DNA of 64,000 nt from Tenericutes bacterium ADurb.Bin087 (GTDB lineage Bacteria; Bacillota_I; Bacilli_A; RFN20; CAG-826): the NCBI GenBank assembly GCA_002070905.1, contig MWEF01000002.1, positions 9,297 through 73,296 on the forward strand, written 5' to 3'. Below the pieces are notes generated by a model. It had not been told where the DNA came from, ran no database searches, and worked only from the letters and a program-made list of their open reading frames with translations. This document shows, piece after piece, positions 8,186 to 48,092 of this stretch. The stretch's first letter is position 1, and each line of letters starts with the position of its first letter. The position numbers and the translations under genes are program-made.

Positions 8186-8194
8186 AATTACTCC

Positions 8195-9510: not shown

Positions 9511-10554
9511 TTACTTTTTATCTTTTTCAATCTTACTTTTAATTTCTCTTTTTTGCATTAATTTATCAAAATCATTTCGATAGTTTTTGTCTTGAATCAC
9601 TCGATATTTTTCAAATTCACTTTCGGCAAAACTTTTGGCCATTTCGGCCGAAACTTTTCCTTTGTCATTTAAAATATCCTCTTCATTAAATTCTAAAAAT
9701 TTATCGAGTCTTTTGGCCCAATCTTCCATAGTCATTGGTATTTTCCGATTAGCTTGTCTTTCAGCATAATCGAGATACATCGAAACTATTTGGTTTAAAC
9801 TTTCCATTTCTGTTTTGGACAAATAATTTTTAGCAATGATTACATCTGACTTAACAATTTTACCAACTGGTGCATTTTTCCAAGTTGTTAATCCCATATG
9901 TTCTTTTTTATGGTCAGCGCGATTAATAATTAATTCCGCAGCAGTGTGATTATGTGTTGCAAAATGTAATTTATTTTGAACTGCGGCAAAGAAATCTAAT
10001 GTTGTTTTTGCTGTCGGTGAATAATCAACTGCGGTTGAATATATATCAGTAATCTTTTGATAAAATAACCTTTCACTTGCTCGAATTTCTCTTATTTCTG
10101 CGAGTAAATGTTCAAAATACTTTTCATCAAATACCTGACCTTGCTCTAATCTTTTTTTGTCTAAAACATATCCTTTAATCGTGAAGTCTTTTAATACATT
10201 TGTCGCCCATTGTCTAAATTGAGTGGCTCTAATTGAATTTATCCGATAACCAACAGAAATTATGGCATCTAAATTATAAAATTTCATCTTGTATTTTTTG
10301 CCATCAGTGGCAGTTGCCGAGGATTCTTCGGTAACTGAATCTTCAATTAATTCCTGTGAAGCAAATATATTTTTCAGGTGATAACTAATATTATCGGTTG
10401 AACAATCAAATAATTCCGCCATTGCTTTTTGCGTTAGCCAAATATTTTCATCTTTTATTCTTACTTCAATTCCCGACTCACCAGTTTGCATCGTAAAGAC
10501 TATGAAGTCTATCGTACTATTTCGAATTTGAATCTTCTTTTTTTTATTTTTCAT
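9511..10554 (-). CDS. RhuM-family protein (Virulence_RhuM-like, putative DNA-binding)
   Basis: N-terminal region IWLTQKAMAELFDCSTDNISYHLKNIF...YNLDAIISVGYRINSIRATQFRQWATNVL matches the conserved RhuM core, recalled from memory. The start is chosen at MKNKKKK, with RBS GGTGAGG. Confidence 0.65.
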   Translation of the reverse strand: MKNKKKKIQIRNSTIDFIVFTMQTGESGIEVRIKDENIWLTQKAMAELFDCSTDNISYHLKNIFASQELIEDSVTEESSATATDGKKYKMKFYNLDAIISVGYRINSIRATQFRQWATNVLKDFTIKGYVLDKKRLEQGQVFDEKYFEHLLAEIREIRASERLFYQKITDIYSTAVDYSPTAKTTLDFFAAVQNKLHFATHNHTAAELIINRADHKKEHMGLTTWKNAPVGKIVKSDVIIAKNYLSKTEMESLNQIVSMYLDYAERQANRKIPMTMEDWAKRLDKFLEFNEEDILNDKGKVSAEMAKSFAESEFEKYRVIQDKNYRNDFDKLMQKREIKSKIEKDKK

Positions 10555-10948
10555 ACCACGCCTCACCTGATTGTATTATTTATCAATTACTTAATATTAC
10601 CATTTGCTATTAAAATAAAAAAGTAGGTGGTTATTAAATGGTTATTAAGTGGTTATTAATTTTTATCGCTTAAAAAAATTTAACTACCAATAATCCTTTT
10701 CAATCTTTTAATTATAATCATTCAATCAACGAATGTTCTTGATAGTTACTATTTTCCCAAATATTTAATATTAGAACATGTCTATTAAGATTCTAAGGTT
10801 GTAGTTTACCTAATTGTTTAAATTTACATTATTTTGTGCAGCGAATATTGGATAACATGCGGTGCAAATTATCTATTTCAATAAAAAACCGCAAAAATAT
10901 TAAATTTATAAAATTGATGTAACGAATATATTCAGTTATTCCTAGTTT

Positions 10949-11659
10949 TCAGTCTCTTTTACTTATTTCGTACATTAGTATTGCGCCCGCAATAGCGACA
11001 TTAAGTGAATCAATATGCTGCATCGGAATTTTTACTCTGCAATCGGCAATTTTTAAGACATCTTTACTGACACCACGTGCTTCGTTACCTAGGACAAGCA
11101 CTAATTTAGAAGCTTTCACTTCCTCAATCGTAATCGCTTCTCCTAAAGTAGTAACAACAACTTGATATCCTTCATTTTTAAGTATCGTTAATTCTTTTAA
11201 TGAAGATTTTTTAATCGGTAATAAGAAATGCGCACCCTGACCACTATTTAGGACTTTTTCGTTATATGGATTAACACTTCCTTCACTAAGTAATACACCA
11301 CCAAAATCAAACGCTAAAGCAGTGCGAAGAATCGTGCCTAAATTACCTGGATCATTAACTTCATCTAAATACAATAAATGTTTACTTTTATCTATTAATA
11401 ATTTTGGTTTTTTAATCAGCGCAAAAGCCCCATCAGTGGTAACTTTGTCACTTAATTTCTTGGCTATTTCAGGGGTAATAAGTGTCATAGGAACGTCATA
11501 ACTAAGTTTTTCAACACTAAAAATTTCAATAATTAAATTAGCGCTTACCGCCATTTCAATCAGGTGTTTACCTTCAATTAGAAGTTCATCTTTTGGTTTT
11601 GCTTTTAAGGCCACTAGTGCTTTAATCTTTGGATTTTGCTTACTCGTTAATATATCCAT
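10949..11659 (-). CDS. TrmH/SpoU-family RNA 2'-O-methyltransferase (YsgA-like, next to pheS as in Bacillus)
   Basis: SpoU motifs: NLGTILRTALAFDFGGVLL, LVLGNEARGVS, KIPMQHIDSLNVAIAGAILMYE. Confidence 0.8.
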   Translation of the reverse strand: MDILTSKQNPKIKALVALKAKPKDELLIEGKHLIEMAVSANLIIEIFSVEKLSYDVPMTLITPEIAKKLSDKVTTDGAFALIKKPKLLIDKSKHLLYLDEVNDPGNLGTILRTALAFDFGGVLLSEGSVNPYNEKVLNSGQGAHFLLPIKKSSLKELTILKNEGYQVVVTTLGEAITIEEVKASKLVLVLGNEARGVSKDVLKIADCRVKIPMQHIDSLNVAIAGAILMYEISKRD

Positions 11660-12305
11660 AATGATGCTCCTTTAACATTTGATCTAAAAGTTTATAATTT
11701 GGTTCATATTTTTCTAACATTGTATAAAATTTACGACCATGACCATTTACAAAATAATGCACTAATTCATGAACGATTAAGGCATCAATAATGCGCGGGT
11801 GATAATGAATTAATTTCGTGTTAAAGGTTAGACTCATAGTCCGTTTACTATTACTGCCCCATCTAGTTTTCATATTTCGAACACGGACATTGTACTTAAC
11901 ATTTATATTCATTATGTCACTATATCTATTTACTGCTTTTTCTAAATAATTTAATAATGTCTTTTTTGTTAATGAGTAGAAGTGTTCAAGACTATTTGGC
12001 ATTGCTTTTAATTTATACTTTTCTTTAATAGCAACTAAACTTAATTCTTCCCCAAATATATACGTTTTGTCCGTGAAAGGAATCGTTTTTGTTGTTTTTT
12101 GTAAACGAATTAGACTCTTATAATTTTTAATAAATACTTCTTCTAATTTTGAGATTCTAGTCCCATAGGGAAGTGAGACATTAAATGTATTTTCTTGCGT
12201 TTCACATGGTCGAAAAATAATCGTCTTCATTCTTTTATAGGTAAGACTTAAATTATAGTTAACGACACCATTTTTAGTATTAACACTGATAATATGAGTA
12301 AACAT
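11640..12305 (-). CDS. M48-family metallohydrolase (YgjP/DUF45-like)
   Basis: C-terminal HELVHYFVNGHGRKFYTMLEKYEPNY (HExxH plus the downstream FW/Y pattern of the YgjP family). Confidence 0.7.
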   Translation of the reverse strand: MFTHIISVNTKNGVVNYNLSLTYKRMKTIIFRPCETQENTFNVSLPYGTRISKLEEVFIKNYKSLIRLQKTTKTIPFTDKTYIFGEELSLVAIKEKYKLKAMPNSLEHFYSLTKKTLLNYLEKAVNRYSDIMNINVKYNVRVRNMKTRWGSNSKRTMSLTFNTKLIHYHPRIIDALIVHELVHYFVNGHGRKFYTMLEKYEPNYKLLDQMLKEHHYGYINE

Positions 12306-12371
12306 AAGTCTATTGTATCACGGGGTGGCAAATAATAGTTTTGAAGGGTAAATAATTAAAGCACTTCTTGT

Positions 12372-13382
12372 TTAAATGTTATTGGGGTAATAAATATTAG
12401 TAAGATCAATATAGTCAATAAATTCGGGAAATATTATGGTTGTTTCGTCATTAAATACGAAATTTGCTTCATTCTTGAATTTATAATGCCTTGTTGTTTT
12501 TTCGATTATCGTATGAGTTGTTTCATAATATGTAACTGTATAACTAATGTCATTAGTGACTCTACTAATAAGTCCTTCGTTATCAATTTCAATGGTCGTT
12601 GTATGTCGAATAAGATTTAAACCGTTTAGTGTTCGTTCAATATTTTCTGAATACCACGGATGAGTTTTATACCATTCAATTTCTTCACTAGTCATTTCAT
12701 CAATATTTTTACCAAAACTTGCCTGTAATAAAAAAGCTAGTTCTTCTTTTGACATTGTGTAAGTCACTACTAGTTTATCTTCAGTTTTTCGAGTTTTAAC
12801 ACTATTTACTATTGATAAAAAGCCAGGGTATTCCGCAATTCCGCGCGGAGTACGTTCTAATAATAATGATCCATAATAATTATTAAAGAAATATAAAACA
12901 TCTGTCGCGGGAAGTTTTCCCATTTTACATTTGAGTTTTTTATTTAACTCATTAGTTGAACCAGCATTTGTTGGTGGTGGTATTGATTCTTTCTTTGTGT
13001 AGAACCATTCATCCGTATAGTAATTGTCACGTGTGTAAAGCGGCTCAAAAACAGTTTCATCATCTTCACTAGGAACATAATAAATATAATTTACTGCCAT
13101 TTTAAGTTCATCTTTTGCTATATCGGTCGCACATGCTTTTACATCTAATGAAAAATTAACAAATTCACTTTCCGTCGTTTTATCGCGATTATAAACTACT
13201 TGTCCTCTTAATTCTTCACCTATATATGTAAAATTAACCGCATCAAAATTATGGAATTGTGACTTTTCTTTCGCCGCAAACACCGCGATATTGGCTTTTT
13301 GTTCGGATATTTTAACGTCTCTGTCGCAGCTAGTAATAACTAAAAAAATAAAAGATAAAGGCAACCATTTCTTGCATTTCAT
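12372..13382 (-). CDS. lipoprotein of unknown function
   Basis: The internal start MKCKKWLPLSFIFLVITSC gives a signal peptide with a lipobox (ITS-C). There is no recognisable domain, and the region is AT-rich. Confidence 0.55.
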   Translation of the reverse strand: MKCKKWLPLSFIFLVITSCDRDVKISEQKANIAVFAAKEKSQFHNFDAVNFTYIGEELRGQVVYNRDKTTESEFVNFSLDVKACATDIAKDELKMAVNYIYYVPSEDDETVFEPLYTRDNYYTDEWFYTKKESIPPPTNAGSTNELNKKLKCKMGKLPATDVLYFFNNYYGSLLLERTPRGIAEYPGFLSIVNSVKTRKTEDKLVVTYTMSKEELAFLLQASFGKNIDEMTSEEIEWYKTHPWYSENIERTLNGLNLIRHTTTIEIDNEGLISRVTNDISYTVTYYETTHTIIEKTTRHYKFKNEANFVFNDETTIIFPEFIDYIDLTNIYYPNNI

Positions 13383-13477
13383 AACTAACGCTCCATAATC
13401 TATTTTATCACTATTTATTTTAAAATAAAAAGTACCGGGTATTGACACTCGGTACTCTTACACTTTAAATTATTTAA

Positions 13478-34914: not shown

Positions 34915-36810
34915 ATGGAACTCAAATATAAAAATCAAATCGTTAAAGTAAATGAAGGAACGACTGGTTTTGATTTACTCAAAATCCTAAATGTTGAAGG
35001 GAAAGGTAATGTTTTAGTCTATAAACTAAATGGAGAGCTTTTTGATCTAGCGACATCACTACCAAATGGCGGTGACTTCAGTTTTGTGACAAAGGATGAT
35101 GCGGAAGCTTTTGCACTGCTAAACCATGATGCAGCACACCTCATGGCCCAAGCCATTTTAAGTATGTATCCAAAAGCTAAATTTGGGATTGGTCCCGATA
35201 TTAGTGAAGGCTTTTACTATGATATTGATTTTGGCGATGCAATCATTAATGATAGCGACTTAGCAGTTATTGAAGCACGCATGCTTGAACTCTCGAAAGC
35301 TGATTTTCGCGTGATGCGCCAAGTTGTCACTAAAGAAAAAGCACTAGAAATATTTGCAAATAATGAGTATAAAATCGAACTAATTAAAGAAATTAATGAA
35401 CGCATTACCATCTATTCGCAAGGTGACTTTGTTGATTTGTGCTATGGTCCGCATTTACCGAGTACACGTTATGTCCAACACTTTAAACTCTTAAGTTTAG
35501 CGGGTGCCTACTGGCGCGGTGATTCAAGTCGTAAACAATTAACACGTATTTATGGTGTTGCTTTCTTTAGTAAAGAGGCGCTTGATAAACATCTTGCTAA
35601 TCTTGAAGAAGCCAAAAAACGTGATCACCGTAAATTAGGACGCGAACTTGGGCTCTTTATGCTTAGTGAATATGGGCCAGGCTTCCCCTTTTGGCTCCCT
35701 AAGGGCATGAGGCTTTACCATGAACTTGAACACTGGTGGATTAAAAAACAACGCGAAGCGGGTTATGAATTTGTTAAAACACCACAAATTCTTAGTCGTG
35801 AGTTATGGGAAACAAGCGGTCACTGGCTCAATTACCGCGAAAATATGTATACGACACTCATTGATGACCGCGACTTTGCGATTAAACCAATGAATTGTCC
35901 TGGTTCGATTCTTATTTACAATAATGGTTTACATTCGTATAAAGATTTACCAATCCGCATGGCGGAACACGGTCACGTTCATCGTCATGAACCAAGTGGT
36001 TCACTAAATGGATTATTTAGAGTGCGGAGCTTCACGCAAGATGATGCCCACATCTACTGCCGTAAAGATCAATTACAAGGTGAAATTAAGCGACTGTTAA
36101 AACTATATGACGAAGTTTATAAAACATTTGATCTTAGTTACCATATTGAATTATCCACAAGACCCGAAAAGAAATTCATCGGCGATATTAAAACATGGAA
36201 CTTAAGTGAAAAAGCGCTCGCCAAAGCGTGTAAAGCAAGCGGGATTCCGTTTAAGATTAATGAAGGGGACGGTGCATTTTATGGGCCAAAACTTGATTTT
36301 AAGTTACGTGACAGCTTAGGGAGAATTTGGCAATGTGGTACGATTCAATTAGACATGAATTTACCCGAACGCTTCGATATTTCCTATATTGACGCTAATA
36401 ACCAAAAAGTACGGCCAATTATGCTCCACCGCGCTGTCTTTGGCTCAATTGAACGCTTTATTGGCATTTTAATTGAACATTACGCTGGGGCTTTCCCGCT
36501 TTGGCTAGCGCCGACACAAATTGCAATCTTACCTGTAAATAACGATGCACATTTAAAACACGCTAATAGTGTCGTGCGTAAACTTGAAAAAGAGGGGTTT
36601 AGGGTTGAACTTGACGCTAGTAATGAAAAACTTGGTTATCGGTTACGCACGAGCCAAGTAAATAAGATTCCTTACACTCTCGTTATTGGTGATAAAGAAC
36701 AAAATGATAACTTAGTTACTTATCGCAAATTTGGGGCCAAAGACCAAATTACTGTTCCCTATCGTGAATTTATCGCGCTAATTAAACGTGAAATTCGTGA
36801 CAAAGCATAA
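34915..36810 (+). CDS. thrS: threonyl-tRNA synthetase
   Basis: 631 aa with TGS, editing and class II catalytic domains (FRVRSFTQDDAHIYC) plus an anticodon-binding domain. Confidence 0.95.
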   Translation: MELKYKNQIVKVNEGTTGFDLLKILNVEGKGNVLVYKLNGELFDLATSLPNGGDFSFVTKDDAEAFALLNHDAAHLMAQAILSMYPKAKFGIGPDISEGFYYDIDFGDAIINDSDLAVIEARMLELSKADFRVMRQVVTKEKALEIFANNEYKIELIKEINERITIYSQGDFVDLCYGPHLPSTRYVQHFKLLSLAGAYWRGDSSRKQLTRIYGVAFFSKEALDKHLANLEEAKKRDHRKLGRELGLFMLSEYGPGFPFWLPKGMRLYHELEHWWIKKQREAGYEFVKTPQILSRELWETSGHWLNYRENMYTTLIDDRDFAIKPMNCPGSILIYNNGLHSYKDLPIRMAEHGHVHRHEPSGSLNGLFRVRSFTQDDAHIYCRKDQLQGEIKRLLKLYDEVYKTFDLSYHIELSTRPEKKFIGDIKTWNLSEKALAKACKASGIPFKINEGDGAFYGPKLDFKLRDSLGRIWQCGTIQLDMNLPERFDISYIDANNQKVRPIMLHRAVFGSIERFIGILIEHYAGAFPLWLAPTQIAILPVNNDAHLKHANSVVRKLEKEGFRVELDASNEKLGYRLRTSQVNKIPYTLVIGDKEQNDNLVTYRKFGAKDQITVPYREFIALIKREIRDKA

Positions 36811-36868
36811 GTCATTACAAACTTCTACTTCCATGCGATAATATGTGTGGAAAAAGGAGGAAAATGAT

Positions 36869-37480
36869 ATGGCTTTTACATTAAAACCACTTCCATATGC
36901 TTATGATGCACTTGAACCTTACATTGATGCACTAACAATGGAAATTCATCACACAAAACACCACGGAGCATACGTTAATAACTTAAATGCCGCGTTAGCG
37001 AAAGAATCAGGTTTTGAAAATTGGACTTTAGAAAAAATATTAACAAACTTAGAAAAATTACCCGAAAGTATTCGCACGGCCGTGCGCAATAATGGTGGTG
37101 GTGTTTTTAACCACGACCTCTTCTGGACTTTGCTTAAAGTCAATAATGGCAAGGGTCCTGAAGGCAAACTTAAAACAGCGTTAGTTGAAACTTTTGGTAG
37201 TGTTGAAGCATTTAAAGATGCCTTTGCCGCTGCGGCTAAAACCCGCTTTGGTTCCGGCTGGGCGTGGCTTATTGTCACTAAAGATAAAAAACTTAAAGTA
37301 TTAAGCACCGCAAATCAAGACACACCACTACTTGAAGGTCGTCCGATCTTAGCGCTTGACGTGTGGGAACATGCTTATTACCTTAAATATCAAAACCGTC
37401 GCCCCGAATACGTTGATGCATTCTTTAACGTTGTAAATTGGGATGAAGTCGCGCGTTTATACCAAAATGCGTTAAATTAA
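36869..37480 (+). CDS. sodA: Mn/Fe superoxide dismutase
   Basis: [32 protein letters not shown]...DVWEHAYYL. The start is assigned at MAFTL, with RBS AAAGGAGGA. Confidence 0.9.
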
Positions 37481-37489
37481 CAATTAAAG

Positions 37490-37652
37490 TTGACAGATTA
37501 TCATATTAGTGATATCTTTATAAGGTCTAAAAGTGGAAAGTAGAAGCGCCCGCTTCTCACCAGATTTACGAGGTAAATTGGTTGATGCTACGATTATATC
37601 GTCTTATTGCGGGTGTCTACTGACGCCCGCTTTTATTAACTACAAGGAGGAA
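37490..37652 (+). promoter_or_regulatory. infC-rpmI-rplT promoter and L20-type transcription attenuator leader
   Basis: TTGACA (37490-37495), a 17-bp spacer and TATCTT. The leader has an upstream CGCCCGC element (37547-37553) that can pair alternatively with the left arm of the downstream terminator hairpin GCGGGTG..CGCCCGC (37609-37630, followed by TTTTATT). Confidence 0.5.
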
Positions 37653-38204
37653 ATGCTTATTTACAACCAAAACCGAGAACGGCCCGAACGCAATACTGAT
37701 TTAGTCAATGAAAACATTCGTTTTCCCGAAGTCTTAGTCATTGGCCCAAATGGCGAACAACTAGGCGTCATGAAAACACGCGCCGCAATTGAACTTGCAG
37801 CAAATCAATATGAACTAGATTTATACTGTGTTAACCCGAATGGCAAACCACCCGTTTGCAAAATGCTCAATTATTCTAAATACCGCTTTGAACAACAAAA
37901 GCGCGCTAAAGAACAAAAACGGAAACAAAAGATTGTCGAATTAAAAGAAATCAGAATGTCACCCGTAATTGATGTGCACGATCAAGAAACAAAAGGGCGA
38001 ATGGCTCGTCGTTTCTTAGAAGATGGTAATAAAGTTAAGGTGACAATCCGCTATCGTGGACGCCAAATGGCGCACATTGAAGTTGGTGAAAAAATATTAG
38101 AAGGCTTTGTTGCATCATTAGAGGAATTTGCTGTCGTTGAAAGAAAGCCATTACTCGAAGGTCGTAACCTAAGTGTTATCTTAGCGAGTAAAATTAAGAA
38201 ATAG
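37653..38204 (+). CDS. infC: translation initiation factor IF-3
   Basis: Conserved IF-3 core (...IRFPEVLVIGPNGEQLGVM...ELDLYCVNPNGKPPVCKMLNYSKYRFE...). The in-frame ATG at 37653 is only 2 nt after RBS AAGGAGG. The ATT at 37659 has 8-nt spacing and is the likely AUU start. The track ORF begins at 37533, inside the leader. Confidence 0.85.
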   Translation: MLIYNQNRERPERNTDLVNENIRFPEVLVIGPNGEQLGVMKTRAAIELAANQYELDLYCVNPNGKPPVCKMLNYSKYRFEQQKRAKEQKRKQKIVELKEIRMSPVIDVHDQETKGRMARRFLEDGNKVKVTIRYRGRQMAHIEVGEKILEGFVASLEEFAVVERKPLLEGRNLSVILASKIKK

Positions 38205-38215
38205 GAGGAAGTTTC

Positions 38216-38410
38216 ATGCCAAAAATGAAAAGTAAAAGTGCTTTAACCAAGCGCGTTAAAGTTACTAAATCAGGCAAATTAATGCGTAAAGCAGCGTATA
38301 CATCGCATTTAGCCCCCCGCAAAACAACAAAACAAAAACGACAATTACGGAAAGTGCGTTTAGTGCATAAGAGTGACGCTAAACGTATTAAGTATTTAAT
38401 TCAAAACTAG
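38216..38410 (+). CDS. rpmI: 50S ribosomal protein L35
   Basis: 64 aa, MPKMKSKSALTKRVKVTKSGKLMRK, a typical L35. Confidence 0.95.
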   Translation: MPKMKSKSALTKRVKVTKSGKLMRKAAYTSHLAPRKTTKQKRQLRKVRLVHKSDAKRIKYLIQN

Positions 38411-38422
38411 GAGGAAGTAATA

Positions 38423-38782
38423 ATGGCAAGAGTAAAAAGTTCACCGGTCACACGTGCCCGTCGTAAAAAAGTTTTAAAACAAGCCAAAGGTTACTTTGGT
38501 TCCAAAAGCTTACTCTTTAAAACTGCTAAAGAGCAAGTCATGCACTCCTTACGTTATGCTTATATCGATCGTCGTCGGATTAAACGTGATTATCGTAAAT
38601 TATGGATTAAACGGATTAACGCCGGCTGCAGAATGTGTGAAATTAGTTATAGCCAATTCATGCACGGCTTAAAATTAGCGAATGTTGATATCAATCGTAA
38701 AATGTTAAGTGAATTAGCAATTAATGATTTTGAAACATTTAAAGGTTTAACCGAAACAGCGAAAAAAGCACTCGCAAAATAA
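38423..38782 (+). CDS. rplT: 50S ribosomal protein L20
   Basis: 119 aa, [26 protein letters not shown], a typical L20. Confidence 0.95.
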
Positions 38783-38804
38783 AGTAAATATTTCTTTCTT
38801 AACA

Positions 38805-38840
38805 AAACTGGGAGTAGATTTATGTTTACTCCCTTTTTTA
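38805..38840. terminator. bidirectional rho-independent terminator (rplT and convergent PHP-gene operon)
   Basis: GGGAGTAgatttatgttTACTCCC is followed by TTTTTTA on the + strand. An A/T-rich run on the other side serves the minus-strand operon. Confidence 0.6.
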
Positions 38841-38908
38841 ATTTCTCCACTTTTAATAATTATTTTAAGGACAAACAGTAATTGAAATTTTTAATTAAAT
38901 CTTCTTAT

Positions 38909-41041
38909 TTAGTACTTCATGATAGGCCGTAAGCGTTTATTAGGTTCATCAATTTCAAATTCGCGAGTAAAATTTTTACCTATTTTCATTTTTTCAAAGG
39001 TGAAACCACGATTATTCATATCTAACATCATCTCGTAAAGTTTTAAATATAACATATCAGCTGTGTATTTAATCGATGGTTTTAGTTTTAAGTCATCAAT
39101 TCTTTTCTTTAATTGCTCTTTACTTAATAATAACGGTTCTTCTTTAGCTAACCCTAAACTTGTATAAAAAATCATATTAAAGTAATCAACATAAAACGCT
39201 AAAGGATGATAAAGTTTAAAGAAGGCAAATAGTAAACTGATTCTCTGATGTTCACTTCGTTCAGCGTCTTTGTAACTTTCTTTAAGGTGCGGTATACCAA
39301 GATTCGTTACTTCATCAGCACCTGAAACTATATCCATTAGTCTTTGTTCATTAATATCAATGTTATTAATGTTGACACCTGTAATTTGCATTAAATTACG
39401 TAATTTATATAAATAAATATCCGCAATTATATTAAATTCATACAGTGATTTTCGTAAATCATTATGATCAAAGTGCGTCATTTTCCATACATACTTATCA
39501 TTATTAAGATAATATTGCAGTGGAGTAAATTCATGCCACTTACGACCTTCAGGCAAGATAAAGATAGAAGATATATGCGGCATAGTTATCCTTTTAGTTT
39601 GCGCAGTGTAAAGCGCAATTTTTCTCACTTCTTCATCACTAACTGTTTTGACGTCTATTTCCTTCCACCCTAAAGTCTTTTTCGTCATATTAATTGCGGT
39701 GCTAATAGGAAAGGGTGTTATTTTCCCGCCTTTAACAACATTATCTTCGCCAAAATTTTCACGAAGATATTGAAGCGCTTTAAGGTGACCTTCTTCTTCA
39801 ACTTTTAAATAAAAGGCAGAGTCATCCGCATTATATGGAATAAAACCATTCACTGGACATAAAGGGTTAACGTTACTAATTCCTAAAAGATAGGCAAGAA
39901 AAGAACTTCCGTTTTTCTTATATCCGATAAATAAATAGCCATATTTCTTCATTAACTTCGCTATTTGATAATATATTAGTAAAACTGATGAATAACCTTT
40001 ATTTATCACATCATCTAATTCTTCCTTCATCCGTTTTTTTACTTCTCTTGGAAGTAAATCACCATATTTCTCTCGTGCTTTATTAAAACAGATTTCACTT
40101 AAAGTTTTATTAGCATTTTTAATTATTGGATAAGATGTTAATAAAGCATACGGCATAATTTGCGAAATCATATCGTTAATAAGGTTAGTATTTTTAATAA
40201 CTATTTCGTTAGCGAGTTCCTCCTCTAAAAACGAAAAACTTGCAAGCATTTCCTTTGTACTTCTAAAATGTTGATCTGGATTTTCAAAATATTCTAATTC
40301 GTTCCGTTCTTTTGGAGTTAAGGGATGGCGTCTTGTATAGGGAATTTGCGAATCAATTAAGACATCGCGACTTATTTTATGAACTTTATCAAGGTAATGA
40401 ACATCGCCTGTAGCAACTACTAGTTTTCCTAATCTTTTAGCACTATTAATAATTCTAACGATAGTGTCCTTTATAGATTTTTCATTATATTTTTCTATAT
40501 ACATATTTATTAAGTGCGAGTAGTTACTAGGTGGTTGAATTTCTAAATAATCATAAAATGAGCATATTTTTTCAAACACTTCTTCATCTTTAATCTGACT
40601 AGCGTAATCAAAGACTTCACCATTAAAACACGCTGAACCAATTAAAAGATTAGTGCGATATTTATTAATAACACTTTTCGGTAGTATCGCTTCTCCGTCA
40701 TGTAAATGCTTAGTGTTCGCTAGTGTTAATAATTCATAAAGTTCATTAATTCCTTGTTTATTCTTCGCTAATGCGATAGTGTGATAAATGGGTTCAAACT
40801 TTTTGTTGAATTTAGCGGAGAAAGTATCATCCCACATTAATAATTCAACTCCATAAATAATTTTAATGTCGTATTTTTGACCTGCTTCGTGCGCTGAATA
40901 AAATGACTGTACACAATTATGGTCAGTTATAGCAATGGCAATGTGTTCCATTTCTTTAGCTCTCTTACAATATTCGTCAATTGTTGTTACACCGTCTTGC
41001 TCTGACATATTTGTGTGTAAATGTAATTCTATTCTTTCCAT
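38909..41041 (-). CDS. PHP-domain protein fused to a catalytically degenerate PolC-like polymerase core (pseudo-polymerase; candidate nuclease effector)
   Basis: The N-terminal PHP motifs are intact (HLHTNMS, DG, ITDHN, GVE, CFNGE, VVATGDVHYL). Downstream, clear similarity to the PolC palm/fingers, recalled from memory of B. subtilis PolC (NGSSFLAYLLGISNVNPL, KRITMPHISSIFILPEG, THFDHNDL, FFKLYHPLAFYVDYF, NRGFTFEKM). The PDIDLNF catalytic aspartates and the KAHAAAY motif are replaced. Confidence 0.6.
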   Translation of the reverse strand: MERIELHLHTNMSEQDGVTTIDEYCKRAKEMEHIAIAITDHNCVQSFYSAHEAGQKYDIKIIYGVELLMWDDTFSAKFNKKFEPIYHTIALAKNKQGINELYELLTLANTKHLHDGEAILPKSVINKYRTNLLIGSACFNGEVFDYASQIKDEEVFEKICSFYDYLEIQPPSNYSHLINMYIEKYNEKSIKDTIVRIINSAKRLGKLVVATGDVHYLDKVHKISRDVLIDSQIPYTRRHPLTPKERNELEYFENPDQHFRSTKEMLASFSFLEEELANEIVIKNTNLINDMISQIMPYALLTSYPIIKNANKTLSEICFNKAREKYGDLLPREVKKRMKEELDDVINKGYSSVLLIYYQIAKLMKKYGYLFIGYKKNGSSFLAYLLGISNVNPLCPVNGFIPYNADDSAFYLKVEEEGHLKALQYLRENFGEDNVVKGGKITPFPISTAINMTKKTLGWKEIDVKTVSDEEVRKIALYTAQTKRITMPHISSIFILPEGRKWHEFTPLQYYLNNDKYVWKMTHFDHNDLRKSLYEFNIIADIYLYKLRNLMQITGVNINNIDINEQRLMDIVSGADEVTNLGIPHLKESYKDAERSEHQRISLLFAFFKLYHPLAFYVDYFNMIFYTSLGLAKEEPLLLSKEQLKKRIDDLKLKPSIKYTADMLYLKLYEMMLDMNNRGFTFEKMKIGKNFTREFEIDEPNKRLRPIMKY

Positions 41042-41095
41042 ATCTAAATTTCCTCTCTCTTTAAATTAATATTGTTTAAATGATTTAATTTATAA

Positions 41096-41551
41096 TTAAC
41101 GGTTTTCATTATTATTCCTACCTAAAATTTTTGCTAATAAAGAAAACACGAGTACTCCTAAACCGATGAATCCGCTGATTTGTAGTGCAGAATTAGGGTC
41201 AAAATAAGTGCCGGCGGGTTCCTCAATTTTCCAGCACGGATAAGAATCGTAGGTTGGTGGTACTACATCTAGCACGTATTCTCCAGTAACTATATGTACG
41301 TAACCGTTCCGAAATTTAACCCAAGGGTCTCTACCTCTTAATAATTCACAATCAATATCATCGCTTTCAAGCCGATAAAGCAGGTGTCTAGCGTGGCTCA
41401 AGCAATAATACATAGCAGTATTAAAATCTGAAAAAGTAATGCCTATAGCATCTTCTAATCTTTGAAATTCACTTTCACCACTATGAGCTTCTTCAAATTC
41501 TTCACGAATAAAACAAGGGCGCCCGTCATAACTAAAACCAGTGAAGCCCAT
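41096..41551 (-). CDS. small tail-anchored membrane protein of unknown function
   Basis: About 151 aa from the ATG with RBS AGGAGA; the track ORF starts one codon earlier at GTG (41552-41554). It has a soluble Cys/aromatic-rich N-terminal domain and a single C-terminal TM helix (ISGFIGLGVLVFSLLAKILG). Confidence 0.5.
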   Translation of the reverse strand: MGFTGFSYDGRPCFIREEFEEAHSGESEFQRLEDAIGITFSDFNTAMYYCLSHARHLLYRLESDDIDCELLRGRDPWVKFRNGYVHIVTGEYVLDVVPPTYDSYPCWKIEEPAGTYFDPNSALQISGFIGLGVLVFSLLAKILGRNNNENR

Positions 41552-41654
41552 CACGCGTAATCTCCTAATAAAAATGCCATTTATGAATCCTCCTATTTGT
41601 TACAATTTAGTTATAACATGTTAATTAGGACATAAAACGACATTAATGATTAAT

Positions 41655-42353
41655 TTATTTTTTATTACAATTAAAAATACAAATATTGACTTTTTCTTCT
41701 AACTTTGTTCCTTTTATGCGCGTTAATTTGAATAGTTTATTCATTTCATCTATCCATTCATCATGTGAAAGTGATTTATAGTCTTCAGTATTAAATTCGT
41801 ATCCATTTTCAAAAAGTAAATACACTAATTTGGCTTTATAACCTTTTTTTAGTAAAAAATCTAAAGCAATTATGCGATTCGCTAATTGATAACCTGCACC
41901 AGTCCAGTTACTTACTGACCGATTAATTTCGTATTCTTTTTGAACGGTTGTAATAACTTTAGTATTGTTTGCTATTGTATCAGGATCTTTCCAATCCGCT
42001 CCTGCTCCTTTTAATTCTCCAAGATGCGCTTTTGCTTCTACTAAAATGATGGTGCCGTCTTTCGAAATTCCAACCGCATCCCAATTTATCCCTCCTTTTC
42101 CGCAAGCCCAGTAAGTAGTCCATTCTTTATTAATCCCTGGGATAAATTCAAAATTTAGTATTTCTTTATCTTCTGGCCCATTAAAAGTAAAATCAAGCCA
42201 ATTAATTTCACTATCAACTTTAGCGGATTCAGCACTCGCCTCATTTAATTCATTACGATGCCAGCCAAGCATTCTTAGTAATTGATACTTTGATCCATAA
42301 CCAAACGCTAATTTATCACAAATATTTTTTTGCATTTCATTTATAACCTCCAC
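41655..42353 (-). CDS. hypothetical protein with a PD-(D/E)xK nuclease-like motif
   Basis: 232 aa; WDAVGISKDGTIILVEAKAH fits the D-x(n)-E-x-K restriction-endonuclease-fold signature. It has no other recognisable domain and is AT-rich. Confidence 0.45.
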   Translation of the reverse strand: MEVINEMQKNICDKLAFGYGSKYQLLRMLGWHRNELNEASAESAKVDSEINWLDFTFNGPEDKEILNFEFIPGINKEWTTYWACGKGGINWDAVGISKDGTIILVEAKAHLGELKGAGADWKDPDTIANNTKVITTVQKEYEINRSVSNWTGAGYQLANRIIALDFLLKKGYKAKLVYLLFENGYEFNTEDYKSLSHDEWIDEMNKLFKLTRIKGTKLEEKVNICIFNCNKK

Positions 42354-42394
42354 TACTTAAATAATTTATAAGAAACTCGAGATATAGAAGGTAA

Positions 42395-43111
42395 TCATTT
42401 TATATCTTTTTTAAAAATAAAAACTTTAATATCCCAATCCTTGATTAACTGATTAACATTAGGGTGCTCTTCTTTATTACGAAAATGTTCCGCTGCTGTT
42501 GAATCTTCGGGGATTAAAATCACTTTTCTAATCCTCGTGCAGGGGTTAATCTCCAATTTCTTAATATGTAAATCTTTTAATAGTTGTTTCTTCTTCTGGA
42601 TTAGTGACTCGTAATATGTTTGGATTTGGAGCGCACACTTAAGAAGGGTTTCAACGCTTTTATATTCCCCATCCTTTTTTACGCCTTTAACCTCAATTAA
42701 GTATAGTTCATCCTTCTTTTCGTCATACGATAATAAATCAACATCCACTCCAGTATTAGGAGAGATATTTAACTCACATTCAAACGGTTTTCCTAAATTA
42801 TCTGGTGACTCTTCAAACAAATCTTCCCCAAAAGAGTTATCATCATACCATCTGCGACATAATGCACGCTCAGTGCCTGGTTCCGCTTTACTTTTTCTCT
42901 TACGCATTTTAAATTCTTCCCTCACTTCGGTATAAGGGACAATATCATCTTTATGTTCCAAAATATATTCTGCAATAACTTCAGTATAAAATTCAGTTCC
43001 CTTTTTCGTCTTACCTGTATAGTTATTGAAATCCTTGGTATAAAACCCAACTTTAGGTAAAGCATTTTTAACCATTTCAATAATTTCTTCTTTACTATAT
43101 TTTTTAGGCAT
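42395..43111 (-). CDS. hypothetical protein with a PD-(D/E)xK nuclease-like motif
   Basis: 238 aa; VDVDLLSYDEKKDELYLIEVKGVK has the D...E-x-K pattern. Its ATG overlaps the regulator stop (TAATG), which indicates translational coupling. Confidence 0.4.
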   Translation of the reverse strand: MPKKYSKEEIIEMVKNALPKVGFYTKDFNNYTGKTKKGTEFYTEVIAEYILEHKDDIVPYTEVREEFKMRKRKSKAEPGTERALCRRWYDDNSFGEDLFEESPDNLGKPFECELNISPNTGVDVDLLSYDEKKDELYLIEVKGVKKDGEYKSVETLLKCALQIQTYYESLIQKKKQLLKDLHIKKLEINPCTRIRKVILIPEDSTAAEHFRNKEEHPNVNQLIKDWDIKVFIFKKDIK

Positions 43112-44001
43112 TAGCTATTCCCCCTCTTTATACTTATTATTTGGTTATTCAAGTATTTTAAGTATCGTTCTATAAAATCTTTATCTAAAAATGTGTACTT
43201 CTTTGTGCTAATTCTAAAAAGTGGATAGTATAATTCGTTTTCACTACTACTAGTGACGGTGTAAGTTAACTCTTCTTCATCTTTAGTACCTTTACCCTCA
43301 AAATATTTATCGAAAGTTAATAATGTTTCTTGGTCGTTACATTTAACACGTAATGTTGTTTCTTTTCCGTCTTTAATTCCATACATCGATGACTTTTTTA
43401 GAATTGTCTGTTCGATATTATCTTTTGGCATGAAAGCTTCTAATTGTTTAATATCACGCATAAACCGCACATCATATTTACGTAATTCATCATTATATGT
43501 GCCAAATAAGTAATAAGTGTGATTTGTAAGCACAATTTTATAGGGCGCAACTTTTAATGGGTTATCAAAATCACGATACATGAAACTTATTACTTTTTGG
43601 ACTTTGATAGCCTTTATAATTTGTTCTAAATTATCTAACACATCATTATCGATGTAATTATCTCCAACAATTGAATCCGTAATAACATAATTTGGTAATT
43701 CAGACAGAACTTTTTCAATACGTTCATTACTTCGCATCGCAATAGACATAGCAAGTACGATATTTTCGGGCATCGCAAAGCCTTTATCTAAAGGTGTCCG
43801 TAATCTGTAACCACCATAACGCCCTAATTTAGTCTCAATATCGAGTTCTATGATTGTATTTAAGTCTTCTAGATAACGACGAGCTTGACGATCACTCACT
43901 TCAAGATAATTTGCAATTTCTTTGATAGTGACCCACTTCGTGCGATTATGTAGTTGATTTAGGTACAAGAGCACTTTTAGTTCCTGACTAATTTTTGACA
44001 T
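43111..44001 (-). CDS. HTH + WYL-domain transcriptional regulator (BrxR/CapW-like)
   Basis: An N-terminal DeoR-type HTH (VTIKEIANYLEVSDRQARRYLEDL) is followed by GRYGGYRLR. The WYL domain shows ISFMYRDFDNPLKVAPYKIVLTNHTYYLFGTYNDELRKYDVRFMRDI. A C-terminal extension may be WCX-like. It is the first gene of the 5-gene operon. Confidence 0.7.
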   Translation of the reverse strand: MSKISQELKVLLYLNQLHNRTKWVTIKEIANYLEVSDRQARRYLEDLNTIIELDIETKLGRYGGYRLRTPLDKGFAMPENIVLAMSIAMRSNERIEKVLSELPNYVITDSIVGDNYIDNDVLDNLEQIIKAIKVQKVISFMYRDFDNPLKVAPYKIVLTNHTYYLFGTYNDELRKYDVRFMRDIKQLEAFMPKDNIEQTILKKSSMYGIKDGKETTLRVKCNDQETLLTFDKYFEGKGTKDEEELTYTVTSSSENELYYPLFRISTKKYTFLDKDFIERYLKYLNNQIISIKRGNS

Positions 44002-44063
44002 ATAAATCCTCCATAGCTTTAGGATAACAAACTATATAGGACATATAAAGGCATATTAAAAAA

Positions 44064-45245
44064 TTAAAATAATTCATCCTCACTATTATTTAGAGAAATA
44101 TCAACTTTTTTCGTATCACTAATTGCTTCACTAATAAGTGATTCGTAATCAAACTTGCTTTCAAAACGGAGTGCATCTTCTAATTTTGGGCTAGTGACAG
44201 AATTTGTAACAGGGAAAATCGTACAACAATCTTCATAAGGTAAAATGGAAATGGGATACGTTTGAATGCCCTTTGCAATCTTAATAATTTCATTTTTATC
44301 AACTGTCGCTAGTGGGCGAATAATTGGATAATTTGTTACTTCATTAATCACCACAAGTGATTCAAGTGTTTGACTAGAAACTTGGCCAAGTGAATCACCA
44401 GTGACAAGTACTTTATAGCCATGGCGCTTAGCAATAATGGTGCTGATGCGCAGCATCATGCGGCGCATTAAAGTAATCGCATACCCGCCTGTCGAGTGTT
44501 CATAAATCGCTAATTGGAGGTTAGTGAAAGGCACAACATAAAGCCTAATACACGGTTGATAGTTATTAAGTTTAGCAACAATGTTTTCAATTTTCTTTAA
44601 CACTTCTTCACTTGTATAAGGAGGAGCAGCAAAGTGGATAGCCGCAATTTTAATCCCGCGCCTAATCATTAAATAGGCGGCGACTGGCGAATCAATCCCG
44701 CCACTAAGGAGCACTAAGCCTTTTCCCGCGGCGCCAAGCGGATAACCGCCTAAACCATCATAACGTTTACCAACAACTAAAATTCGATTTGTATCAATCT
44801 CTAGTCGTAGTGGCAATTCGGGATCATGGACATCCACTTTAATCTCGGCATTTTTCAGAATGTGACTAGCAATACTACGGTTAACTTCATCACTGCGTAA
44901 CGGAAATAATTTATCCTTTCGTTTAGTAATTACTTTAAACGTTTTTGGTTTAAGTTCAAGCACAAGGCTAAGCACAAATTGTTTAACCTTTTCTAAATCT
45001 AACGGGAATTCAACAACTTCACTAATGGCATGGATTCCGCTGACATTTTGCAGCCGTTTTATAATTTCTTGCAAATTATTTTCTTGAATATTTTTTATAT
45101 AAATATGGTCATGTCTTGTTTCAATATGGACTTTAAAAGGCGCGCTAACTTCTTTAATGTTTTGCGTTAGTTGCCGGATAAAATCTCGTCTATTTTTGCC
45201 TTTAGTGTATAGTTCACCAAAGTGAATCATTACCATTTTACTCAC
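44064..45245 (-). CDS. thiI: tRNA 4-thiouridine(8) synthase ThiI
   Basis: 393 aa with a THUMP domain and a PP-loop (LLSGGIDSPVAAYLM). Confidence 0.9.
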   Translation of the reverse strand: MSKMVMIHFGELYTKGKNRRDFIRQLTQNIKEVSAPFKVHIETRHDHIYIKNIQENNLQEIIKRLQNVSGIHAISEVVEFPLDLEKVKQFVLSLVLELKPKTFKVITKRKDKLFPLRSDEVNRSIASHILKNAEIKVDVHDPELPLRLEIDTNRILVVGKRYDGLGGYPLGAAGKGLVLLSGGIDSPVAAYLMIRRGIKIAAIHFAAPPYTSEEVLKKIENIVAKLNNYQPCIRLYVVPFTNLQLAIYEHSTGGYAITLMRRMMLRISTIIAKRHGYKVLVTGDSLGQVSSQTLESLVVINEVTNYPIIRPLATVDKNEIIKIAKGIQTYPISILPYEDCCTIFPVTNSVTSPKLEDALRFESKFDYESLISEAISDTKKVDISLNNSEDELF

Positions 45246-46371
45246 GGCTATACTCCTTAATAATTTCGATTAATGCCTTACAGAATATGTCAACTTCTTC
45301 AAGGGTATTTTCCATTCCAAAACTGACACGGATTGAATTACTAGCGCGCTCTTCATCATGAGATATGGCATACACTGATTGACTCATAGTATGTAACTTA
45401 GCGCTACAGGAACTTGTCGTACCAACATAAATCCCCCGATTTTCTAAAGCATTAAGGACAATTGATGCCTTAATCGTCTTAAGTGAAAAATTAAAGATGT
45501 ATGGATTACTTTGTCCGAGAGAATTAATAACAAATAAATCTTTATATTGAGCAATAAAATTGTGAAGTTTAAGTTTTAAAGGATAAACATGATTAAAGTG
45601 GTTATCTATATTCCCTTTAGCGATTCGCACTGTTTTTGCTAACACAATATTAGCGGGCGCATTATGCGTTCCAGGTCGAATCCCTTCTTCTTGTCCCCCG
45701 CCATACACTAGTGGTTTTGGCTGTAAATTATTGCGGAGAATCAAAGCACCACTCCCTTTTAAACCACCGATTTTATGAGCGGAAAATGAATAAGCATCCG
45801 CAGCGTTAGGATGATATTCAAGTTTCCCCATCGCTTGCGTGACATCGCTATGGAAAATAACTTTAGGATATGGTTTTAAGTAGTCCCTAATTTTCCCCAA
45901 ATCAATAACATCACCTACTTCATTATTAACAACCATCACCGATACGAGTATAGTTTTATCATTTAGTAACGATTTAAAAACATCAAAATCAAAACCACCT
46001 TGGAAGCGAATCGGTACCTTGTGAATGATGGCCCCACGCTCTTGTTGTAAATACGCACAAGCTTCCCGGACGCTAGGGTGTTCGTAATCACTAATGATTA
46101 TTTCATTGCCTCTATTTTTATATGTTTCATATAAACCAATAATGGCAATATTATTAGCTTCTGTTGCCCCGCTAGTGAAAATAACTTTACCATCACGAAA
46201 TTTAAGCATTCTTAAAAGTTCTTCGCGTGCTTTATCTTGTAATCTTGCTACTTCACGGGCAAAAGTATGCATTCCACTAGGATTTGCATAATATTTATCA
46301 AGAATCTCATTATATGTTCTTAAAACTTCTGGATGAATTTTTGTTGTACTAGCGTTATCAAAATAAATCAT
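45238..46371 (-). CDS. cysteine desulfurase (class V aminotransferase, NifS/IscS/NifZ-like)
   Basis: 377 aa; FSAHKIGGLKGSGAL contains the PLP lysine, and FTSGATEANN is present. It is paired with thiI, as in Bacillus nifZ-thiI. Confidence 0.85.
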   Translation of the reverse strand: MIYFDNASTTKIHPEVLRTYNEILDKYYANPSGMHTFAREVARLQDKAREELLRMLKFRDGKVIFTSGATEANNIAIIGLYETYKNRGNEIIISDYEHPSVREACAYLQQERGAIIHKVPIRFQGGFDFDVFKSLLNDKTILVSVMVVNNEVGDVIDLGKIRDYLKPYPKVIFHSDVTQAMGKLEYHPNAADAYSFSAHKIGGLKGSGALILRNNLQPKPLVYGGGQEEGIRPGTHNAPANIVLAKTVRIAKGNIDNHFNHVYPLKLKLHNFIAQYKDLFVINSLGQSNPYIFNFSLKTIKASIVLNALENRGIYVGTTSSCSAKLHTMSQSVYAISHDEERASNSIRVSFGMENTLEEVDIFCKALIEIIKEYSRE

Positions 46372-48092
46372 TGTTTACGGTTTTGGTATTTCTTTAATTG
46401 TTCAATTGAATTTTCGTATGTATGTTTAAATAAGCCGTTAAAGAATCGTTGTTCTTCATCACGTAATTTAGCGTGTAATTCACTAAATTGTGGACGGAAT
46501 GCATTTAAGCTCACGATGACTTCTTCCGCTGAATGTGCGTATTTAACATCTGTGGTAATTACATCTTCAAGCCGTGTCGCTAATGCACGTAATTCATTTG
46601 TTAATACTTCAACTTGACTCACATCAATTGGTCGTTCACGAATAATCGTGCTAATATCACTAATCATTGCATAGCCACTATCAAAGTCTTGTTCAAAGTT
46701 TTGAACATACGACGGAACATTAAGTTTGCGTAATGTTACTTCTAATTCCTTAAAGCGTAAAAATAATACTTTACAAATCGCAAACCCATCTTCAACAATA
46801 ACGCGGAGTGATTCAATATATGTTTGAAATTCACGGACGAGTACTTCAACTTTCTTACTTTCACTTTGTAGTTGCATTACTTTCTCGACTAACACACTAT
46901 AAGGTTGCTTTGTCGCACTATGTAAGAACGCATCTAAACTGCGTTTAACCATCATCATCGTGTTAACATTCGTATTTGCTTCTTCAAGTTTCTTTTCATA
47001 TTCGGGGTTAATTAAATAATATTCCTTAACTTGTGGCATTCTATTTACTAGCCTAATATAACGTTGTTCTAATTCATTAACATGTAAATATGTTTTATCG
47101 TATTCAGCGGTAAATTCACGTTGTTTGTCAATTTCAACATTGAAACTATTCACTAATTCATCAATTGTATCGGCAATCTGATTTAATGTTTGTTCGACAT
47201 TACGTGTATCAAAGCGAATGAGTTGATCTTTAATGACTTCAAGCTGTTCATTAAAGTTTTCAATTTCAGCACTGACGCGTAAATGATGCAGCGGGACGTT
47301 ATAGGCCGTTGCTTCTTCATAACTTTTCTTAAGCGTCGCAATTTTTTCGGGAATTAAGACTGTTGCTTTGACAACTAACAACGGTAAGATTTGTAGAATG
47401 CGCTCTAGTTGATCATTAAACGTGCGAATTTTTTCTAAATAACTGCGGGCTTCATCGTAATAAGCACCATTTAGTGCATTATCATATTCTTTAAAGAGTA
47501 ACTCAATTTGGCTAAAAATCCGTTCAAAACTTGGTACACAAATTTCGAGTTCATCTTTGTGATCCCGATAAACATTTTTAATAATACGTAATTTCTCTTT
47601 ATCGTAGACACTCTCTTCACGAATTTCGGATTCGGGTTTAATCATATTTGTTAGATCTTTACTTAACGCTGTTACTTTACGTTCATAATCTAAAATAATC
47701 GGGCGATGTTCGTTGAACGCTTTTTTAAATTCTTTGTTCCCCGCGGCAAGCGCTTCATTTAAGATTTGAATTGATCGGCTCGCTTTACGGTCATCGACAT
47801 TCCGTAACTGTTCAAACCGCGCAAAAAATTCTTCATAAGCAGGGCGCATTAATAAATTAATATCACTGATTGCTTCAATGCGTTTAATATATTGAATATT
47901 TTCTCCAAGTAGTAGACTGCGAACGTATGAATATTTAATCGACAATGATTTTAAGACTTTACGGTTTTTCGTGCCTTGAAAGGCAAATTTACTTAAAATA
48001 AAGATTAAAACGGCGACAACAAGAATAATACTTGCCGCAATAAAGATAATATCAAGTGTATTTAATAATGTTACTACTTCCATAAGTCGCAC
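46368..48092 (-). CDS. ezrA: septation ring formation regulator EzrA
   Basis: 574 aa with an N-terminal TM anchor (IIFIAASIILVVAVLIFIL) followed by a long coiled coil. Size and architecture match EzrA. Confidence 0.7.
   Translation of the reverse strand: MRLMEVVTLLNTLDIIFIAASIILVVAVLIFILSKFAFQGTKNRKVLKSLSIKYSYVRSLLLGENIQYIKRIEAISDINLLMRPAYEEFFARFEQLRNVDDRKASRSIQILNEALAAGNKEFKKAFNEHRPIILDYERKVTALSKDLTNMIKPESEIREESVYDKEKLRIIKNVYRDHKDELEICVPSFERIFSQIELLFKEYDNALNGAYYDEARSYLEKIRTFNDQLERILQILPLLVVKATVLIPEKIATLKKSYEEATAYNVPLHHLRVSAEIENFNEQLEVIKDQLIRFDTRNVEQTLNQIADTIDELVNSFNVEIDKQREFTAEYDKTYLHVNELEQRYIRLVNRMPQVKEYYLINPEYEKKLEEANTNVNTMMMVKRSLDAFLHSATKQPYSVLVEKVMQLQSESKKVEVLVREFQTYIESLRVIVEDGFAICKVLFLRFKELEVTLRKLNVPSYVQNFEQDFDSGYAMISDISTIIRERPIDVSQVEVLTNELRALATRLEDVITTDVKYAHSAEEVIVSLNAFRPQFSELHAKLRDEEQRFFNGLFKHTYENSIEQLKKYQNRKQ

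Follow-up and report, generated by a model that had tools for sequence, protein, structure and literature searches.

Repressors of the BrxR/CapW type, which combine winged helix-turn-helix (wHTH), WYL and WCX domains, head phage-defence islands (PMC9122601, PMC9122589, PMC9122588, PMC11662680). BrxR has been reported to repress through two boxes within one defence island (PMC9122601), and CapW-type WYL repressors have been reported to be released by single-stranded DNA (ssDNA) (PMC11662680). WYL regulators also control SOS-independent damage responses via ssDNA sensing (PMC10853764, PMC12041258), and the Ppl and Ophion (OpnB) defence systems contain PHP domains (10.1101/2025.09.30.679545). The present analysis concerns a cassette of five genes, led by a WYL regulator and closed by a PolC-derived protein, in a stretch of 64,000 nucleotides from contig MWEF01000002.1 of Tenericutes bacterium ADurb.Bin087 (assembly GCA_002070905.1), hereafter the window. 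We give about an even chance to the reading that the cassette is a WYL-repressed, inducible accessory module of an undescribed family, which would most likely act against phage or other foreign DNA and be exchanged horizontally.

Gene order, regulator and accessory insertion

The cassette, 5.2 kb long, fills window positions 38864-44063, between rplT (38423-38782, plus strand) and thiI (44064-45245, minus strand). Its five genes are all encoded on the minus strand. The regulator gene comes first (43111-44001, 296 amino acids (aa) in the list of open reading frames (ORFs)) and is followed by g2 (42395-43111, 238 aa), a predicted, putative PD-(D/E)xK nuclease, and g3 (41655-42353), a PD-(D/E)xK-fold protein of 226-232 aa, probably translated from the ATG at 42335 as a product of 226 aa. 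The fourth gene, g4 (41096-41551, with the ORF extending to 41554), encodes 151 aa, comprising a conserved domain and a C-terminal hydrophobic helix, from the ATG at 41551 used by gene callers. The last, g5 (38909-41041), encodes the 710-aa PolC-derived protein, which is annotated in the deposited metagenome-assembled genome (MAG; uncultured Bacilli) only as 'PHP domain-containing protein'. The regulator stop codon and the g2 ATG share 1 nt, and the remaining intergenic gaps measure 41, 100 and 54 bp. A preliminary description of this DNA, made from the letters alone, had given this anatomy, including the overlap, and the ORFs and domain matches agree with it.

The likeness to BrxR and CapW lies in a helix-turn-helix (HTH) plus WYL protein of about 296 aa as the first gene, whose homologues head varied defence-island cargo. 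As with BrxR, which has R-BOX1 and R-BOX2 in pEFER, one box stands before the regulator's own gene and a second before a downstream unit. Unlike in those systems, the cargo is unrelated to BREX or CBASS, the box has no clear inverted repeat and the regulator has no WCX match. The regulator carries Pfam HTH_11 at residues 14-66 (5.4e-7) and the WYL domain PF13280 at residues 124-185 (31.7 bits, cut-off 21.8), and PADLOC WYL models match it at 2.1e-15 and 4.1e-13. No Pfam match and no WCX domain match were obtained for residues 190-296. When compared with the regulators of related cassettes (seven cassette regulators), the protein showed 60-93% identity, a nearly invariant HTH and a strongly conserved C-terminal region of about 90 aa. 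Among PDB chains of BrxR and CapW, none was matched at E<=1 by sequence or profile, the only chain recovered being the HTH of AtxA. In PADLOC-DB v2.0.0, neither g2-g5 nor the cargo of five related cassettes had a match, and PADLOC, NCBIfam and PHROGs gave nothing for the five proteins beyond WYL and PolC/PHP. No description of such a WYL/PHP/PolC cassette in defence was found in literature searches. The earlier view that the gene set corresponds to no named defence system agrees with the PADLOC result, and a candidate, undescribed defence locus is supported. Ppl combines a PHP domain with an ATPase. The cassette resembles Ppl and Ophion in that its PHP phosphoesterase domain is found in a gene neighbourhood of the defence type, and differs from them in having no ATPase, radical SAM or PRTase partner and in carrying a PHP domain of the PolC type on a dead palm; no ATPase domain was detected in the five proteins with Pfam and NCBIfam.

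The block is a true accessory insertion, because an empty site exists in a conspecific contig. This contig (L071, from another assembly) encodes an identical RplT and aligns with window positions 38358-38863 at 97.2% and with 44064-46682 at 98.0%, with nothing aligned between them. At its positions 505-722, 218 bp unrelated to the window replace 38864-44063 and include a 33-aa ORF that belongs to no family; insertions may have occurred repeatedly in the gap between rplT and thiI. In the ORF survey of the window, the block was free of integrase, transposase and tRNA genes, and none of the repeat families listed contained a direct repeat flanking it, in line with the preliminary description. The block is AT-rich, at 31.7% guanine and cytosine (GC) against 37.9% in the rest of the window, which is a less stark difference than the '28-32 versus 40' estimated by eye. 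The z-scores for the GC content of four of the five genes were between -1.6 and -2.2 relative to the mean of 42 other ORFs; the exception was g4 (38.8%), which is not lowered to this extent.

The same five genes occupy the same site in a sister lineage. The synonymous divergence (dS) between the two lineages was determined by comparing the window with L018 over the genes at 34915-48092, with non-ribosomal genes as flanks. It amounted to 0.57-1.15 for the flanking thiI, iscS, ezrA, sodA and thrS and to 0.13-0.41 for the cassette genes. This lower cassette dS suggests that the cassette was exchanged after the two lineages diverged and is younger than its surroundings in at least one of them. The ratios of nonsynonymous to synonymous divergence (dN/dS) were 0.12 (WYL), 0.55 (g2, the fastest evolving of the five), 0.34 (g3), 0.12 (g4) and 0.23 (g5). 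All five genes, including the dead polymerase, are under purifying selection, and none looks neutral, every ratio being below 1. In many conspecific contigs (seen in L001 and L004-L007), an IS110-family element of 1505 bp, with a 391-aa transposase on the opposite strand, is inserted at 42341-42347, where it parts the GGAGG ribosome-binding site of g3 from its ATG; the remainder of the cassette in these contigs is 99.9% identical.

A repeated promoter-like box and two probable transcription units

A promoter/operator-like box of 31 nt lies directly upstream of the WYL gene (P1, 44024-44054, minus strand), and a second copy lies upstream of g4 (P2, 41613-41643, minus strand). Together they constitute the direct repeat D1. 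The box consists of the core TATGTCCTA, followed 7 nt on by TGnTAT, an extended -10 element, and the consensus of 35 unique copies reads aAAt.tGCC.tTTTATGTCCTA.TT.gtaTGaTATT. P2 fits the pattern with 0 mismatches, and the window contains 2 matches where 0.02 would be expected. A box of the P1 type is kept ahead of the WYL gene in 7 loci that are otherwise unrelated. The layout with one box for the WYL unit and another for a second unit recurs in about 20 related loci and is shared by most related cassettes, the second box being found in L011, L018, L022, L030, L031, L033, L050-L054 and others. Locus L054 contains three boxes (at 6352, 7994 and 9059), one for each module, namely WYL, a 316-aa gene and a B-C-Pol-like group, which suggests that the box behaves as a portable promoter/operator. 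We infer that it is an extended -10 promoter whose conserved core would lie over the -35/spacer region, where a repressor would block RNA polymerase. A reading of the aligned copies gave no convincing inverted repeat.

Because the box is duplicated, the block probably comprises two transcription units, WYL-g2-g3 and g4-g5, instead of the single operon initially proposed. The co-directional, tightly packed genes, the WYL/g2 overlap and the recurrence of the same five genes in the same order in two lineages with a flanking dS of about 1 would fit one operon encoding one obligate five-component system. This seems very improbable to us, given the second promoter/operator-like box before g4 and the strains in which an IS110 element lies between g2 and g3 while the rest is kept intact. 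Moreover, genes like g2, g3 and g4 each occur with other partners elsewhere, and the set of five was found nowhere outside the lineage of the window and one sister lineage. The genes do not make up a conserved unit, and a defined system of five components is not supported; in the wider family, the constant partners are the WYL gene, a variable nuclease-like gene and two proteins, B and C, which are described below.

Directly behind P2, a relic leader ORF of 9 codons (MAFLLGDYA*, 41551-41580, minus strand) was read from the sequence, and its TGA overlaps the start of g4. The g4 homologue of L030 opens with this leader, joined to it in frame as MAFLLGRGFTG, and protein B of L011 and L033 starts with it as MAFFEE. 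These fusions mark a recombination joint and show that cargo is swapped directly behind the promoter box.

Nuclease-like, membrane and PolC-derived cargo

The g2 family is rare, with only 5 clusters among 5.8 billion proteins. Six sequences share the invariant residues E111, E113, D125 and E140-x-K142. NOV_C was matched below threshold in 3 of these 6 members (15.5 bits, cut-off 22.1), and a g2 homologue with 39% identity directly follows the WYL gene in L022. For g3, the PD-(D/E)xK core fold (alpha-beta-beta-beta-alpha-beta) with an invariant D...ExK was recognised, and hhalign placed the g2 and g3 motifs in register with a probability of only 6.7%. The proposal of two PD-(D/E)xK-like proteins accordingly held in full for g3, with both fold and motif; g2 has the motif with only sub-threshold NOV_C matches, and is regarded as a putative nuclease. 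Profiles of g3, WYL, g2 and protein B returned nothing useful from PDB sequences. No family-level sequence match was obtained to known PD-(D/E)xK defence effectors (restriction endonucleases, Can2/Card1, Shedu SduA and Hachiman HamA) or to NucS, and the nuclease-like genes have no CARF, SAVED or helicase partner.

The g4 family comprises 29 representative clusters, in which the 110-aa domain is conserved and the hydrophobic tail varies. The structural model is confident (pLDDT 89) and consists of a 110-aa globular domain and a C-terminal helix (residues 120-146); g4 is predicted to be tail-anchored. The model had no structural match in PDB or BFVD. A scan of genomes for g4 identified only 3 loci, and a scan of viral contigs none. 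The idea that g4 is a diverged protein B was rejected (hhalign probability 0.15%). At positions 2852-4146 of L032, a gene of 279 aa that contains a D...ExK-like motif is followed directly by a g4 homologue. Neither a WYL gene nor a box accompanies this pair, and a 354-aa ORF lies upstream of it.

The g5 protein matches Pfam PHP (1.9e-25) and DNA_pol3_alpha (1.2e-16). It aligned in three pieces with the Geobacillus PolC structure 3F2B (E 8e-99), is 31-43% identical to PolC-type proteins and also gave a match (4e-58) to phrog_405, a family of phage DNA polymerases. Its score against the NCBIfam PolC equivalog model was 436 bits (cut-off 873), and a TrlF-family match was limited to the PHP part (30.9 bits, cut-off 350). 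All nine PHP metal ligands are kept (H7, H9, D16, H41, E66, H87, C138, D213 and H215) and fall in alignment columns that are invariant or nearly so. The polymerase motifs were compared in an alignment with nine PolC-type homologues, all of which keep PDIDLN and DILGH. In the palm of g5, the former is replaced by SA-FYLK, with the loss of both aspartates, and the latter by NIIAD, with the loss of its aspartate. In addition, GQHPGG has become MPHISS, the zinc finger and about 120 aa of the fingers have been deleted, and the protein has no N-terminal domains, OB fold, Exo insertion, C-terminal helix-hairpin-helix domain or clamp-binding QxxLF motif. Judging from these motifs, g5 is unable to polymerise, all three catalytic aspartates and parts of the polymerase being lost. 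The features shared with PolC-type DNA polymerase III, including exonuclease-less paralogues and phrog_405, are the nine-ligand PHP domain and the palm scaffold; those missing are the catalytic aspartates, the zinc finger, the stretch of fingers, Exo, OB and the clamp-binding tail. An assignment of g5 as the host PolC or as part of a split PolC was rejected, since g5 has lost the motifs and belongs to an accessory cassette.

The PolC-derived genes of related cassettes have lost polymerase motifs, PHP ligands or both, in a complementary manner. The polymerase motifs are intact in L011, L051 and L016, and also in L055, where the PHP ligands are lost. The window copy is PHP-intact and polymerase-dead. 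A 496-aa form, both PHP-less and polymerase-dead, is present in L033, L054 and, as a third copy, L052, and is conserved between loci at 1e-275 to 2e-276. In L030, the gene is nearly deleted, with a 155-aa stump left, and it is absent in L057, L061 and L063.

Several of these data would be expected if the cassette were what is left of a mobile-element or prophage replication module in decay, retained together with its repressor and without a present role in the cell. Close g5 relatives occur in replication-type contexts (e.g., L028, which also encodes an SNF2 helicase and a D5 primase), and the match to phrog_405, the lost catalytic motifs, the L030 stump, the PHP-less forms of L033 and L054, the IS110 insertions in sister strains and the relic upstream ORF behind P2 point in the same direction. 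We nevertheless consider such a remnant unlikely. All five reading frames are intact, their dN/dS being 0.12-0.55 at a dS of 0.13-0.41 (0.23 over 710 codons for g5). Conservation extends to all nine PHP ligands, to the regulatory boxes and, between loci, to the 496-aa form, and the cassette stands alone, with no other mobile-element genes. A further idea, which we regard as quite unlikely, is that the PolC-derived cassette proteins, with their complementary losses and with palm fragments fused to protein B, are not enzymes but polymerase mimics, which could serve as decoys or guards binding phage anti-replicase factors, or as dominant-negative fork poisons coupled to the neighbouring nucleases. 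If true, they would constitute a new class of immune sensor or effector derived from a replicative polymerase, in addition to the g4, B and C families.

Related cassettes, their neighbours and the proposed function

Close homologues of the WYL regulator (60-72% identity) head cassettes in Erysipelotrichaceae, in MAGs of other Bacilli and in metagenomes, some of them ruminal. The layout of the family is the WYL gene, a variable gene that is usually PD-(D/E)xK-like, the box, an optional g4, the genes for B and C, and an optional PolC-derived gene. The gene following WYL belongs to at least five unrelated types, in contrast to the nearly invariant HTH of the regulator. In BLAST and phmmer searches, the middle genes of the window showed no relation to their counterparts in L011 and L016. 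Protein B is characterised by the motifs GPFFY...PRGRV...HYTH, and its long forms carry a polymerase palm fragment, while protein C has about 85 aa. Both are missing only from the lineage of the window. The window copy thus appears to be a derived mosaic, having two nuclease-like genes, compared with mostly one in its relatives, and no B or C. A second, different WYL-domain protein (332 aa) is encoded in L053 at 7222-8220, about 1.8 kb upstream of the cassette WYL gene.

In 6 of about 13 informative related loci, restriction-modification, GmrSD, AbiEi, DpdE/ZorD-like, BnzB or PDC genes were found within a few kb. The neighbours were PDC-S18 and methyltransferases in L011, a type I restriction-modification system in L016, BnzB and PDC-M09A in L024, a type II restriction endonuclease in L030, AbiEi and a DpdE/ZorD-like SNF2 helicase in L051, and GmrSD and an AlwI restriction endonuclease in L054; in L055, a Schlafen AlbA_2 protein was present. 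In L033, a viral contig from IMG/VR that also contains phage tail genes, the cassette follows a holin gene. The L033 phage genes were looked for next to other cassettes and none was found; therefore, prophage carriage is documented once only. The preliminary description had proposed a defence-island insertion, of which the insertion is confirmed by the empty site and the defence neighbourhood applies to relatives, the window copy having housekeeping neighbours.

For the cassette, we infer WYL repression, an ssDNA trigger, nuclease and PHP activity, a g4-g5 link and a phage phenotype, which could be connected in the following manner. A WYL dimer bound to the conserved box, overlapping the -35/spacer of P1 and P2, would hold down the expression of both units. 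On the model of CapW and BrxR, ssDNA arising from infection or DNA damage would bind the WYL domain and release the repressor. Unit 1 would then raise the putative PD-(D/E)xK nucleases g2 and g3, and unit 2 the tail-anchored g4 and the PolC relic g5. The latter could hold DNA ends, with its intact PHP site acting as a 3'-5' exonuclease or phosphoesterase, and might be kept at the membrane by g4.

A similar circuit could serve the cell's own DNA, with a PafBC- or DriD-like WYL protein switching on nucleases and a polymerase-derived DNA-end binder in a damage-inducible repair or tolerance cassette. Such a role would be consistent with the SOS-independent damage responses that WYL regulators run by ssDNA sensing (PMC10853764, PMC12041258). 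The g5 relatives in L011, L051 and L016, moreover, keep all polymerase motifs and have no proofreading domain. A precedent is provided by ImuA-ImuB-DnaE2, in which ImuB is a catalytically dead polymerase paralogue within a damage-inducible cassette. The window shares with it the presence of such a dead paralogue in a regulated cassette; it differs in the polymerase family, in having neither a RecA-like ImuA nor an active polymerase, in being regulated by WYL instead of LexA, and in being accessory and polymorphic. Presence/absence polymorphism inside one species, the fast replacement of the gene that follows WYL, with five or more unrelated types, and the defence-gene and prophage neighbours of relatives argue against repair. 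The polymerase is also dead, trimmed or missing in many cassettes, and no RecA/ImuA-like or Y-family partner is present. We thus rate a repair function as rather improbable.

Several observations weigh against the preferred reading of an inducible anti-phage module. The regulator lacks a sequence match to solved BrxR or CapW structures, and the box forms no obvious inverted repeat. B and C, the cargo that is most constant in the family, are missing from the window, and the absence, truncation or near-deletion of the PolC-like gene in several relatives could reflect decay just as readily as diversification. Only housekeeping genes adjoin about half of the informative related loci, the window copy itself lies between housekeeping genes and not in a defence island, and the IS110 element splits g3 from its ribosome-binding site in many sister strains.

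Defence systems are poorly charted in uncultured Bacillota of the rumen, gut and digesters. If phage were restricted, the cassette would represent a defence module made from parts new to immunity, i.e., an often dead PolC derivative together with g4, B and C, which are families with no known relatives, g4 having no structural match either. The box provides an experimental handle, as well as a DNA signature for finding more cargo in these organisms. If no phage restriction were observed, the locus would still offer a clean presence/absence cassette exchanged between lineages with no recombinase of its own.

Two further features of the window were recorded. The rplT terminator hairpin (38810-38833, plus strand), identified in a terminator scan, lies just outside the insertion, within the stretch common to the empty site. 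It has 10 pairs followed by a T run and is presumably bidirectional, serving g5 too. A second low-GC patch is located at 9511-13448, with genes of 28-34% GC, and may be another accessory stretch. It contains a 358-aa ORF that belongs to no family (12372-13448), a SpoU methylase, a YgjP-like metallopeptidase (11640-12305) and a RhuM-family gene (9511-10566, Pfam 1.6e-108).

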